A stretch of 64,000 bases of DNA from an uncultured Clostridia bacterium (GCA_900016865.1 FIZI01000001.1:31028-95027), one strand, 5' to 3'; counted from the stretch's first letter, positions 20,829 through 27,228 are shown. Notes: generated by a model not told the origin, from the sequence alone. A program made the numbers and translations.

Positions 20829-21449
20829 ATGCTTGATGCGTTCTTAAAAGGCGGAGTCATCATGTATCCGATCCTTCTCTGCTCAATAGTCGCCCTTGCG
20901 GTAGTGATTGAGCGCATGATCGTGCTTCTAAGGCGCAACGCTGATGCCGACGAGCTCCTCGAGGATGTCAGGTATGCTGTCGATGCAGGTCGGATAATCG
21001 AAGCCCTGCAGATAGCCAAGCGATCACGCAGCCCGCTGTCAAACATGATCGTCGCTGCCTTAACGAGCATGGGCAAGCCCAGAACAGAAGTCGAAGAAAT
21101 GGTTAGGACGGCAGGCGAGCAAGAACTGCGGCGGCTTGAGAAAAACCTGCCTATACTCGAACTCGTTGTAACGATTGCGCCTATGCTAGGCCTTCTGGGC
21201 ACAGTAGTTGGCATAATAAAGAGTTTCAACGTCCTCGGGGCGACCGCCGGGCTGACCGACCCCGCAGTCCTCAGTATTGGAATTGCCGAAGCTCTCATAA
21301 CCACAGCTGCAGGACTCATAGTCGCAATCCCGACCCAGGCCATGTATACATATCTCAACGGCTTGATTGAACGGCATGTGTCTGTAATGAACAGGAAATC
21401 ATTGGAGATTGTCTCGCTGGCAGTTTCCAATCGGAGTGATGTGGCATGA
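20829..21449 (+). CDS. exbB: MotA/TolQ/ExbB proton-channel protein
   Basis: 206 aa. Three TM helices and channel motif APMLGLLGTVVGII...GIAEALITTAAGL. RBS AAGGAGG upstream. Confidence 0.9.
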   Translation: MLDAFLKGGVIMYPILLCSIVALAVVIERMIVLLRRNADADELLEDVRYAVDAGRIIEALQIAKRSRSPLSNMIVAALTSMGKPRTEVEEMVRTAGEQELRRLEKNLPILELVVTIAPMLGLLGTVVGIIKSFNVLGATAGLTDPAVLSIGIAEALITTAAGLIVAIPTQAMYTYLNGLIERHVSVMNRKSLEIVSLAVSNRSDVA

Positions 21450-21853
21450 CCTTTATCAGACGCCGCAAGACAACCCCTACCATACAGATGACGCCAATGG
21501 TTGACGTTATCTTCTTCCTCTTGACGTTCTTCATTTTGTTCACCACCTTTAAGACTCAAGAGGCCGGCATTGGTCTTGAATTGCCAAGATCCACTACAGC
21601 GCAGAGTCACGACGCAACCTATATCGAGCTGGTGGTCAACGAGGCCGGCAGCGTATTTTACGAAGGCAAACTGGTTTCTCAGTCTATGCTGAGAGAGATC
21701 ATATCGCCGATACTAAAACAGTCACCGAGAATGCCTATCGTCATAAAGGCGGACAGGCGGGCTAGGTATGAGCACGTCTACTCAATCATGGACTTAGTGA
21801 GCCAAGCAGGAGGATCGAGTATCCATCTAGCTGCACGTTTGGATCCTCAGTGA
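21446..21853 (+). CDS. exbD: Biopolymer transport protein ExbD/TolR
   Basis: 135 aa. QMTPMVDVIFFLLTFFI with the conserved TM Asp, plus a periplasmic domain. ATGA overlap with exbB. Confidence 0.9.
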   Translation: MTFIRRRKTTPTIQMTPMVDVIFFLLTFFILFTTFKTQEAGIGLELPRSTTAQSHDATYIELVVNEAGSVFYEGKLVSQSMLREIISPILKQSPRMPIVIKADRRARYEHVYSIMDLVSQAGGSSIHLAARLDPQ

Positions 21854-21868
21854 TAGGAGTTGGGCGCT

Positions 21869-25178: not shown

Positions 25179-25194
25179 TGAGGAGGTAGTGAGT

Positions 25195-27228
25195 ATGATC
25201 ACACGCAGGTGCGAGAATCGCGGACTCAAGTGGATACTTGCAGCTGCCTTCGTTGTAGCAGCACTCGCACTGTCCCCTACGTATGCACTGGCGCAGTCCG
25301 AGACAGTCACGGACGTCCCTACAGACCACTGGGCTTACACTGCTGTCGAGGAACTCGTGTCACGGGGATACCTCGAGCTATACCCTGACAGGACGTTTAG
25401 GGGCAACGAATCTGTTACAAGATATCAGCTTGCGCAGGTCGTCTATGCACTGCTTCAGGGCATCGATCCTCTCGCCAAATCAACTCCGCAGGACGACGTC
25501 GAGTTGCTCAGAAGGCTGACAACCGAGTTTAGAGAGGAACTCGTGATGCTGGCTGCGGACGTTGAGAGTATCAATACAGCCATGGACGAAGCGCGCAAGG
25601 AACGTGTAGTCTTGAGGGACGACCTCAATGCTGCCACAGGGCTCGCACAAGAAGTAGAGCATCGGACTCTCTCTCTGGAGGAGCTCATCAACCGCCTGTC
25701 TGAAAGGCTTGATGAAACCGATAAGCAGCTGACAAGCGTGCAGCTAGACGCGACTGCGTTGGCAGCGGGACAGACGTCACTTGAGAGTCGCACTGCAGAT
25801 ATTCTCCAGAAACTGGACGAGATTGCCGGCGACCTCGAAGCGAAGTCAAGAGCAATAGACGTGCTGTCGGCCAGCGTTTCCAAACTTGCTCCAGACCTGC
25901 AGACTGCGATCGACCAGCTTACTCAGGCTGATGATGAGCTCGATCGGACGATCGCACAGCGTCTTGCAGAGGTGGATCGCTCCCTTGATTCGCTTCGAAG
26001 TGAATCAGAGTCAACAAGAGCCGCCATTACAGAGCTTCAGCAAGATCTGACCAAGACAAGAAACTCCGTAGAGGCTGTGAGAAGCAGTCTTACGGCTACA
26101 GAAGAGGAGCTCATAAAGAGAAATCTGGAGCTGTCTGATCGCATCGATGTTGCATCGGATCAACTGAGAGTGATGAACAATGAGCTTGCCGGTGTCAGTG
26201 CAAGAGCGTCTGACCTGAACGCCAGAATCGACGACCTCAGGGTCCAGCTGGAATCCACTCAGGCCACTCTCTATCAGACCAGGACAGACCTCTCCTCTGC
26301 TCTGGAAGCCACCAAGGACGACCTTCTTAGGACGCTCCAAAGCGAGATCGACTTACTCCAGAACGAGTTGAGTGCTGTCAAAGAGACAATGGCACGGGAT
26401 CGCATCACATTTGGCGGTGACCTGGGCCAGCTCCTTGTGGATGTGGACAGCTTCAAGGATCAGGTCAGCAAGCGGATATCTGAGATCGACGGACAGGTAA
26501 GTTCTCTCAGAACTGACCTGGATGATACCAAGGCTGAGGTTGACCAGCTTCACAGCACCGACCAGTCAATGTCTGAGCTCCTGGAGAAGCATGCGAGCTT
26601 GATAGAACAGCTTCAGAGCAAACACGAGTCTCTCGGGTCAGCGGTCACCGCGGATAGCGCCGAGATCGAGGCGTTGAAGGATAGCTTCCTTGCAATCTCT
26701 GAGCGGATAAGCGAGCTGGAGCAGGTCGACCGGGATACATATGAGGAGCTGGTCGGCTTAACGAAGAAGCTTGAATCGCTGACTGACTCTTTAAATGCAG
26801 AGCAAGCAGAGCTCAAGCGAATGATTAGCGTCCAGGATAATATGCTCTCAGGCCTTCAGACTGGACTGCTCAAGCTCAACGATGCTCACACGTCTACGAG
26901 CGAGCAGCTCTCGGAAGACATATCTGCTGTGCGCCAAGATCTAGGCACTCAGGCAGATCTAGTGGCCAGTCTGCGTTCGGACCTCGAGACTGTTAAGAAA
27001 GACATTGCAGACATAGAAACCCTCCTCGACGAAAGCGTCTCAGTCGATGAGATGACCGTCGGGCGTATTGCTGCTCTAGTGAGTCAGATCAACGATCTCA
27101 CCAAGCGAGTCGAGGCGCTCGAGGAACATCATACGCCCAAAGACTCGTCCAGTTCTGGTTCAGGATCTACTCTGCTGCTCCTAGGGCTGGCAGGGGCAGC
27201 TGCGGCGCTACTCCTAGGAGGGAAGTAG
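25195..27228 (+). CDS. SLH-domain protein with about 550 aa of coiled coil and a C-terminal transmembrane anchor (Omp-alpha-like)
   Basis: ATG at 25195, 8 nt after AGGAGG. Signal peptide LKWILAAAFVVAALALSPTYALA. Single SLH domain VTDVPTDHWAYTAVEELVSRGYLELYPDRTFRGNESVTRYQLAQVV. Long heptad-rich Leu/Glu/Asp/Ser region. Tail SSSGSGSTLLLLGLAGAAAALLLGGK. Confidence 0.85.
   Translation: MITRRCENRGLKWILAAAFVVAALALSPTYALAQSETVTDVPTDHWAYTAVEELVSRGYLELYPDRTFRGNESVTRYQLAQVVYALLQGIDPLAKSTPQDDVELLRRLTTEFREELVMLAADVESINTAMDEARKERVVLRDDLNAATGLAQEVEHRTLSLEELINRLSERLDETDKQLTSVQLDATALAAGQTSLESRTADILQKLDEIAGDLEAKSRAIDVLSASVSKLAPDLQTAIDQLTQADDELDRTIAQRLAEVDRSLDSLRSESESTRAAITELQQDLTKTRNSVEAVRSSLTATEEELIKRNLELSDRIDVASDQLRVMNNELAGVSARASDLNARIDDLRVQLESTQATLYQTRTDLSSALEATKDDLLRTLQSEIDLLQNELSAVKETMARDRITFGGDLGQLLVDVDSFKDQVSKRISEIDGQVSSLRTDLDDTKAEVDQLHSTDQSMSELLEKHASLIEQLQSKHESLGSAVTADSAEIEALKDSFLAISERISELEQVDRDTYEELVGLTKKLESLTDSLNAEQAELKRMISVQDNMLSGLQTGLLKLNDAHTSTSEQLSEDISAVRQDLGTQADLVASLRSDLETVKKDIADIETLLDESVSVDEMTVGRIAALVSQINDLTKRVEALEEHHTPKDSSSSGSGSTLLLLGLAGAAAALLLGGK

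Follow-up and report, generated by a model that had tools for sequence, protein, structure and literature searches.

Tol-Pal has been found in Gracilicutes only, and among diderm Firmicutes, Ton systems were detected in Negativicutes only (Williams-Jones et al. 2025, PMC12204202). Pal and Lpp are likewise absent from Terrabacteria, including Limnochordia, Halanaerobiales, and Margulisbacteria, which use OmpM (Witwinowski et al., bioRxiv 10.1101/2021.05.31.446380). Diderm Terrabacteria have neither Pal nor Lpp nor Tol-Pal, which raises the question of how they couple the energy of the cytoplasmic membrane to the organization of the outer membrane and the wall. In the 2009 genome paper on Halothermothrix orenii, ExbB, ExbD, and a putative TonB were found together on the chromosome, outer-membrane receptors were not detected, and a different function was proposed for ExbBD-TonB (PMC2626281). 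The survey of Williams-Jones et al. reports that tonB and receptor genes are frequently unlinked and describes other non-canonical motor-coupled transducers, with no mention of SLH, cohesin, Halanaerobiales, or Limnochordia (PMC12204202). Here we describe a five-gene operon (g1 to g5; positions 20829-27228) in a 64,000-nucleotide stretch of DNA from an uncultured Clostridia bacterium (GCA_900016865.1, FIZI01000001.1:31028-95027; hereafter the window), in which an ExbB-ExbD-TonB-type gene set continues into a cohesin-bearing secreted protein and an SLH-coiled-coil protein. A preliminary description of this DNA had considered the combination new; no publication on the five-gene partner set was found in the literature searched, whereas the puzzle of an ExbBD-TonB set without receptors was noted as early as 2009 in the H. 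orenii paper.

Conserved synteny shows that the constant partners of the predicted motor are g4 and g5 and not a TonB-dependent receptor. This linkage, and with it the non-uptake character of the partner set, is strongly supported; the function is what we infer from the domains present, the order of the genes, and their distribution across taxa. The five open reading frames (ORFs) are co-directional on the + strand, and their starts (ATG at 20829, ATG at 21446, ATG at 21869, GTG at 23121, and ATG at 25195) leave junctions of -4, +15, +37, and +16 nucleotides (nt). A GGAG-type Shine-Dalgarno sequence lies ahead of every gene. ORFs, coordinates, junctions, and individual Shine-Dalgarno sequences are all as the preliminary description had them, and the layout is that of a single predicted transcription unit. 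The genes are the following, with lengths in amino acids (aa).

20829-21449, + strand: g1, MotA/ExbB/TolQ-family proton channel subunit, 206 aa (Pfam MotA_ExbB, 4e-32)
21446-21853, + strand: g2, ExbD/TolR-family subunit, 135 aa, with a 4-nt overlap with g1 (Pfam ExbD, 3e-28)
21869-23083, + strand: g3, TonB-family force transducer, 404 aa (anchor motif and linker; TonB_C at the family level)
23121-25178, + strand: g4, secreted protein, 685 aa, with an N-terminal domain, two immunoglobulin (Ig)-like modules, and a C-terminal cohesin
25195-27228, + strand: g5, SLH-coiled-coil-C-terminal hydrophobic helix protein, 677 aa (Pfam, NCBIfam, and alignment)

Relatives of g4 were collected in a one-genome-per-species scan, which yielded 344 genomes, and the best 80 loci were retrieved. 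Together with 3 loci fetched earlier, they form a synteny set of 83 loci, in which all ORFs were searched with the g1-g5 proteins of the window. The g1 gene is present in 74 of the 83 loci and g2 in 76, and the loci lacking either one begin no more than ~1.7 kb upstream of g4. Between g2 and g4, there is always a gene of ~1 kb. The SLH gene follows g4 in 80/83 loci, and the other three stop at, or within ~60 nt of, the g4 stop codon. Among the best 80 loci, the order g1-g2-g3-g4-g5 is invariant wherever the contig flank suffices, and six more loci (L085-L090), examined individually after the 83-locus count and including Candidatus Margulisbacteria, all keep it. The synteny of the fourth and fifth genes with exbBD-tonB, which had been chosen beforehand as the point on which the proposal could fall, was thus retained in every locus with enough flank. 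An apparent fusion of g3 to g4 in one locus (L082), which would have been Rosetta-stone evidence, proved to be an artefact of a masked N-run.

The genes around the cassette, on the other hand, differ from lineage to lineage. When the flanking ORFs of the 80 loci were clustered, the five cassette genes alone were universal, while the flanks consist of tsaE and mazEF in the window, PHP and spoIIA-sigF in Limnochordia-type genomes, hisZ in Halanaerobacter, and LOG and holB in Margulisbacteria; i.e., the five genes move as a unit through a changing context. The PHP-domain gene occurs in 30/80 loci, lying upstream in Limnochordia-type genomes, where a dacF-spoIIAA-spoIIAB-sigF-like block is also found upstream (20-26/80 loci; e.g., L003:3417-7074). 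In Halanaerobiales, a SleB-like cell-wall hydrolase (Hydrolase_2) directly follows the SLH gene (19/80 loci; e.g., L001:12683-13291). The LOG/"Lysine_decarbox" gene, whose family is not a true lysine decarboxylase, is the nearest upstream neighbor of the cassette in each of the four Margulisbacteria-type loci (L086:3361-4380, L087:4213-5238, L088:4290-5315, and L090:5297-6334). Downstream of the Margulisbacteria-type cassettes, holB (DNA polymerase III delta') is the immediate neighbor in three loci and follows after two genes in L088. Genes for LptF/G are also found near the cassette in Margulisbacteria and Marinamargulisbacteria.

Full-length homologues of g4 (~40% identity over 90-97% of the length) occur in Halanaerobiales (Halanaerobacter, Fuchsiella, Sporohalobacter, Halonatronum, Orenia, and Halanaerocella) and in Limnochordia and related Bacillota metagenome-assembled genomes (MAGs), and the named relatives of a divergent form are Candidatus Margulisbacteria, Margulisiibacteriota, and Marinamargulisbacteria. 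The Margulisbacteria-type cassette comprises a divergent g4 of ~645 aa, a TonB_C protein of 169-205 aa, and an SLH-coiled-coil-transmembrane protein of 161-180 aa. The midpoint root of a neighbor-joining tree of g4 falls between the Margulisbacteria type and the Bacillota type; Halanaerobiales group together as a clade, and the g4 of the window is a deep Bacillota branch of its own. This topology fits vertical inheritance of the cassette, without being proof of it. The MAG labels "Betaproteobacteria" (L005), "Bacteroidota" (L089), and "Thermoproteota" (L090) look unreliable, and taxonomy taken from such labels is shaky: L005 is close to Bacillota- and Clostridia-labelled MAGs (e.g., L007 and L008) in its g3 and g5 sequences, and the gene context of L090, labelled as a Thermoproteota archaeon, is that of the Margulisbacteria loci.

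No TonB-dependent receptor was found among the ORFs scanned in the 64-kb window, and the preliminary description was right in reporting none at the expected position. Within 8 kb of the 80 loci, where 47 large non-core flank ORFs were inspected, no such receptor was found either. The relatives were also checked for a receptor that the window might have lost from this position, and none of them carries a TonB-dependent receptor there.

By homology and by their conserved residues, g1 and g2 are predicted to form a proton motor of the MotA/ExbB/TolQ-ExbD/TolR type in the cytoplasmic membrane. Residue conservation in g1, g2, and g3 was counted over 73-75 orthologues. Conservation reaches at least 95% in g1 for the transmembrane Thr-ring residues Thr125 and Thr159 and for Pro118 and Gly121 (73 orthologues), and in g2 for the transmembrane Asp20 (75 orthologues); the ExbB channel motif and the ExbD transmembrane Asp noticed in the preliminary description thus find support in both Pfam and residue conservation. 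The top NCBIfam model for g1 is tolQ (3e-29), at 102 bits and below the cutoff of 221, and among PDB sequences the match to TolQ covers the whole of g1 (1.9e-15), while that to ExbB covers part of it (2.6e-9). The top model for g2 is tolR, at 60 bits and far below the cutoff of 127, whereas its best PDB match is ExbD (1.9e-6). Since g1 is closest to TolQ and g2 to ExbD, and both models remain below their cutoffs, the motor is not assignable to Tol or Ton by sequence. A Zorya-like or MotAB anti-phage defense system was considered and rejected, as PADLOC yields only a weak, generic match to MotA (2e-4), apart from noise from the coiled coil.

The g3 protein begins with a transmembrane helix that carries the motif S-I-A-I-H, which is followed by a long, acidic, Pro/Glu-rich linker and a divergent TonB_C-like C-terminal domain. 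Part of the linker is encoded by a tandem repeat.

22297-22354, + strand: (Pro-Glu)n-coding hexanucleotide repeat in the g3 linker (Tandem Repeats Finder, period 6/12, ~9.5 copies)

In the g3 of the window, TonB_C was not detected by Pfam or NCBIfam, and the protein has no Pfam match at all, although its C-terminal segment fits the TonB_C pattern by eye. A direct search with this C-terminal domain returned two short relatives only, and the question was therefore addressed through positional orthologues, i.e., the gene at the same position in 75 related loci, of which 72 distinct C-terminal domains were scanned. TonB_C is matched in Pfam by 68/72 of them (best 1e-17), and the g3 family profile matches TonB chains exclusively in the PDB (best 6i97, 2.5e-11). 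These two results indicate that g3 is a transducer of the TonB family and that its C-terminal domain diverged in the lineage of the window. The earlier assignment of g3 to TonB accordingly stands in its His anchor and Pro/Glu spacer, while its TonB_C domain is undetectable in the window copy and is seen at the family level only. The [ST]xxxH anchor motif is present in 67/75 orthologues, and the His is kept in 7 of the other 8, the exception being a spurious short ORF (L011). The conservation of Thr125 and Thr159 in g1, of Asp20 in g2, and of this motif in g3 indicates that the motor is under selection.

The modules of g4 are arranged as follows.

23121-23234, + strand: Sec signal peptide, residues 1-38, with predicted cleavage after A-L-A (sequence; no lipobox)
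23250-24125, + strand: N-terminal domain, residues 44-335, beta-supersandwich of the galactose-mutarotase-like fold (AlphaFold2 (AF2) and Foldseek)
24126-24740, + strand: two Ig-like modules of the CARDB/NPCBM_assoc and DUF11 types (Pfam; all-beta in AF2 with a predicted local distance difference test (pLDDT) score >90)
24753-25178, + strand: C-terminal cohesin module and stop codon (Pfam Cohesin, 8e-8; Foldseek)

The AF2 model of g4 starts with a helix at residues 8-29, which is followed by a low-confidence stretch. The N-terminal ~290 residues have zero Pfam matches even at E = 1; modelled alone, however, the N-domain reaches a pLDDT of 88.5 and a predicted template-modelling score (pTM) of 0.88. 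Its Foldseek matches are the N-terminal domains of cyclic glucan synthase, GH94, and GH116, the P1 domain of YidC, and aldose-epimerase-like proteins (template-modelling (TM)-score ~0.5, E 3e-8 to 1e-5). With the whole of g4, the fold search returned mainly generic multi-Ig proteins (e.g., integrins and alpha-2-macroglobulins) and gave no information on the N-domain. This domain is the best-conserved part of the protein: 34 of the 39 residues that are invariant across Bacillota and Margulisbacteria fall within it, and it carries many invariant Asp, Arg, and Asn residues. Pfam places NPCBM_assoc/CARDB at residues 340-412, DUF11 at 459-532, and Cohesin at 555-667, and the cohesin match is found in 44/61 members of the g4 family. 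In Foldseek, the cohesin module resembles the non-cellulosomal cohesin 2xdh (TM-score 0.78) and type II cohesins (TM-score 0.68). Pfam, AF2, and Foldseek therefore agree with the CARDB/Ig-like modules and the cohesin originally proposed for g4.

The g5 protein consists of a signal peptide (residues 1-33), a single SLH domain of the OmpM/SlpA type (residues 39-79), a coiled coil of ~550 aa, and a hydrophobic helix (residues ~659-675) that stops two residues short of the protein end; the SLH domain, the coiled coil, and the terminal helix had already been recognized in the preliminary description and are supported by Pfam and sequence. The SLH domain is matched by Pfam (3e-8) and by the N-terminal region of the NCBIfam model por_somb (1.5e-15), and the N-terminal 130 aa, i.e., SLH and stalk, align to Deinococcus radiodurans SlpA (7zgx, 4e-13) and Veillonella parvula OmpM (8bys, 6e-12). 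These matches end past the stalk, and the rest of g5 is coiled coil and one hydrophobic helix, without a porin beta-barrel. Neither an OmpA match nor a lipobox was found in g5. The orthologues are 218-1039 aa long in Bacillota-type loci and 161-180 aa in Margulisbacteria, and the hydrophobic C-terminal helix is present in all those whose C-termini were read, except one that is interrupted by an N-run.

From these data, we lean, if only slightly, towards reading the cassette as a proton-motive-force-driven envelope machine of outer-membrane-bearing Terrabacteria that acts on SLH-mediated attachment to the wall. That it belongs to envelope structure and not to uptake is probable. In such a machine, g3 would dock on the motor via its S-x-x-x-H helix and span the periplasm on its long Pro/Glu-rich linker. 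The g4 protein would be exported by Sec to the periplasm, a location predicted from its signal, which is of the Sec type only; its supersandwich may bind an envelope glycan or another conserved ligand, while the cohesin may hold a protein partner. Surface display, which the preliminary description had offered as an option, is less likely, because g4 has a Sec signal peptide only and no dockerin partner is evident. Similar to OmpM and SlpA, g5 would trimerize by its coiled coil to give a peptidoglycan-binding head of three SLH domains, and its C-terminal helix would sit in a membrane; stop-transfer logic and the frequent terminal Lys favor the cytoplasmic membrane, whereas the Omp-alpha precedent favors the outer membrane. 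The TonB-like arm could then pull g4, g5, or both and thereby attach, release, or reposition the SLH-peptidoglycan contacts, which would couple the energy of the cytoplasmic membrane to the organization of the wall and the outer membrane.

Both phyla in which the cassette is found possess an outer membrane and lack Tol-Pal, and the cassette may be their missing envelope-maintenance machine. The more specific proposal of a Tol-Pal-like manager of the tethering between wall and outer membrane is tentative, and we consider it possible at best. In a still wider version, also speculative and in our view rather doubtful, the cassette would be an ancient counterpart of Tol-Pal in Terrabacteria, inherited vertically in Bacillota (Halanaerobiales and Limnochordia) and Margulisbacteria; the attachment of wall and outer membrane would be managed, e.g., at division, by a TonB-like arm together with a cohesin protein that binds glycans and an SLH trimer resembling the OmpM stalk. 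If this version were true, it would explain the purpose of the receptor-less ExbBD-TonB genes in these lineages. A five-gene module that occurs in two phyla with a constant OmpM-type SLH member is, in any case, a concrete candidate both for a replacement of Tol-Pal and for the solution of the receptor-less TonB puzzle, and it is relevant to models of how Firmicutes lost the outer membrane.

Several observations weigh against the envelope machine. When the mature N-terminus of g4 was inspected across the family, no conserved free segment resembling a TonB box was found ahead of the folded domain; the residues that follow the signal peptide are variable, and conservation sets in with a strand that is already part of the fold. 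The TonB_C-like domain of the window itself is highly diverged. The length of g5, from ~160 to 1039 aa, is awkward for a tether of fixed distance, and no significant co-variation between the lengths of g3 and g5 was found (rho 0.21, p 0.09). Judged by source names only, no family member was seen in Negativicutes, another group that uses OmpM. Finally, the N-domain of g4 is fused to RHS repeats, PKD, or CarboxypepD_reg in other proteins (P0243, at L084:8001-10508; P0244; and P0248), and one variant N-domain protein is encoded in an archaeal-looking genome, next to FrhB and an archaeal-type glutamate synthase and with no exbBD nearby. An exhaustive HMMER search with this domain gave 2,488 representative clusters at 50% identity, 553 of them at E <= 1e-30. 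Its presence in other architectures indicates a generic extracytoplasmic domain, not specific to the motor cassette. The form specific to the motor is the protein of ~650 aa with the order supersandwich-Ig-Ig-cohesin. With ~2,500 clusters, the N-domain is in itself a widespread extracytoplasmic domain that lacks a model.

Readings of the cassette other than an envelope machine were weighed against the same data. If g1-g3 were an ordinary Ton system that energizes receptors encoded elsewhere, g4 and g5 would be functionally unrelated neighbors. All ExbB-ExbD-TonB sequence hallmarks are indeed present in g1-g3, and tonB is often unlinked from receptors (PMC12204202), but the five genes are kept together in two phyla though all surrounding genes change, no receptor occurs in the 8-kb flanks of the 80 loci or among the scanned ORFs of the window, and surveys report no receptors in H. 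orenii (PMC2626281) and no Ton in Halanaerobiales or Limnochordia (PMC12204202); we regard this explanation as quite improbable. The fold of the g4 N-domain, which resembles the carbohydrate-associated domains of GH94, GH116, and cyclic glucan synthase and the aldose-epimerase-like proteins, its many invariant Asp, Arg, and Asn residues, and the NPCBM_assoc/CARDB modules, which are common among glycan-active proteins, are what a system for the capture, processing, or import of glycans would predict, with g4 binding or modifying a polysaccharide and TonB energy driving uptake via a non-canonical channel such as an OmpM porin. The TM-scores are just ~0.5, however, and the fold is also used in roles unrelated to carbohydrates (e.g., in YidC P1); the cassette is without a transporter, a glycoside hydrolase, or a regulator, and the wall-binding SLH-coiled-coil-transmembrane protein has no obvious role in uptake. 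A glycan system is therefore unlikely in our estimate.

The sigF-like block upstream of the cassette in Limnochordia-type loci, the SleB-like hydrolase behind it in Halanaerobiales, and the Mn-catalase/CotJC-like and LysM + Hydrolase_2 proteins encoded in the window would suit an envelope-remodelling system specific to sporulation or germination in spore-forming diderm Firmicutes. Such neighbors are lineage-specific and absent at the locus of the window, however, and the Margulisbacteria loci keep the cassette without neighboring sporulation genes; Margulisbacteria are not known to sporulate. The link to sporulation thus seems improbable. Even less can be said for a cellulosome-like or surface-display scaffold, in which enzymes with dockerins would bind to the cohesin of g4 and the whole would be fixed to the wall by the SLH domain of g5. 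In its favor, the fold of the cohesin is confirmed, cohesin and SLH are also the two modules that make up the anchoring scaffoldins of cellulosomes, and the source annotations read "cellulosome anchor protein"; yet no dockerin match was found in g1-g5, neither dockerin nor glycoside hydrolase was found in the cassette or its conserved neighbors, and the two modules are on separate proteins that are always coupled to a proton motor. In a diderm, moreover, the periplasm would be the location of both the SLH domain and g4, which is exported by Sec. Most hosts are halophiles, digester organisms, or marine Margulisbacteria, which are not known as cellulosome producers. Such a scaffold is highly improbable.

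The operon is delimited in the window by the following features.

20495-20828, + strand: upstream non-coding region of 334 nt between the divergent tsaE and g1, with an AAGGAGG Shine-Dalgarno sequence at 20815-20821
27268-27310, + strand: intrinsic-terminator-like hairpin with a T-rich tail at the operon end (12-bp stem with 8 GC pairs)

The upstream region extends to the tsaE start at 20494; the 212 nt given in the preliminary description are the distance to a divergent promoter-like site at 20616. In a consensus scan, no sigma-70-like promoter was called on the + strand of 20495-20828. Neither an Rfam family nor a tRNA was found in the window, so a regulatory RNA in the leader is not supported. 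The terminator-like hairpin proposed earlier exists, but its position is 27268-27297 and not 27270-27301; it is GC-rich and lies 40 nt past the g5 stop codon. A terminator-like site within g3 (21903-21919) was dismissed as weak, such sites being fewer than expected by chance.

The operon is a + strand island in surroundings that consist mainly of housekeeping genes on the - strand. The upstream neighbors on the - strand encode RimI, TsaB, and TsaE. Past them, between the tsaD block and rimI, are two small + strand ORFs (17919-18773), which encode a FUN14-family membrane protein and a 139-aa membrane protein with a terminal zinc-ribbon. Downstream on the - strand are a PemK/MazF toxin with a ribbon-helix-helix antitoxin, Nnr, and AcpS, an acpS-nnr-mazEF arrangement typical of Firmicutes. 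The type II toxin-antitoxin pair lies just past the operon (27345-28038) and comprises the PemK/MazF-like toxin (2e-36) and the ribbon-helix-helix/HicB-like antitoxin. Farther downstream are genes that look spore-associated, i.e., those of a short, CotJC-like Mn-catalase (51268-51840), a polysaccharide deacetylase (53035-53784), and a LysM + Hydrolase_2 (SleB-like) protein (55483-56304), which suggest an endospore-forming organism. Two ORFs of >400 aa (51834-53081 on the - strand and 53900-55210 on the + strand) have no Pfam match at 1e-6, the second having none even at 1e-3.

The cassette shares with Ton the pair of motor proteins and a transducer that combines an S-x-x-x-H anchor with a Pro-rich linker and, at the family level, a C-terminal domain of the TonB_C family. 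The partners encoded in the cassette, on the other hand, are a predicted periplasmic cohesin-bearing protein and an SLH-coiled-coil-transmembrane protein instead of a TonB-dependent transporter. The gene order resembles that of tolQ-tolR-tolA-tolB-pal, i.e., motor, motor, transducer, soluble all-beta periplasmic protein, and peptidoglycan-binding membrane-anchored protein. Furthermore, g1 scores best against TolQ models and structures, and the cassette hosts are diderms without Pal. Beyond the motor, however, nothing is homologous to Tol-Pal. The g4 protein has a supersandwich, two Ig-like modules, and a cohesin in place of the TolB beta-propeller and has no TolB, WD40, or PD40 match in Pfam; g5 uses SLH and a transmembrane helix, whereas Pal uses an OmpA-like domain and a lipid anchor; and the C-terminal domain family of g3 matches TonB and not TolA. 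As g4 does not belong with TolB, g5 with Pal, or g3 with domain III of TolA, the cassette cannot be counted as a Tol-Pal system, even though it may act in a similar way.

The N-terminus of g5 is homologous to the single SLH domain and coiled-coil stalk of OmpM of Negativicutes and SlpA of Deinococcus. It differs from both in that it is without a beta-barrel, its coiled coil is far longer and highly variable (~70 to ~900 residues), and it is always encoded in the motor operon. Omp-alpha of Thermotoga consists of SLH, a coiled coil, and a C-terminal hydrophobic segment, and g5 is like it in this described layout. The cassette also shares a 5:2 motor, a TonB/TolA-like anchor, and a non-receptor output with the non-canonical TolQR/ExbBD transducers, i.e., the vWA-domain transducers, Agl-Glt of Myxococcus, and PorE (PMC12204202), the output proteins of which differ from g4 and g5. 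If the proposed role in the envelope is correct, a third class of output would join the Ton/Tol motor family.

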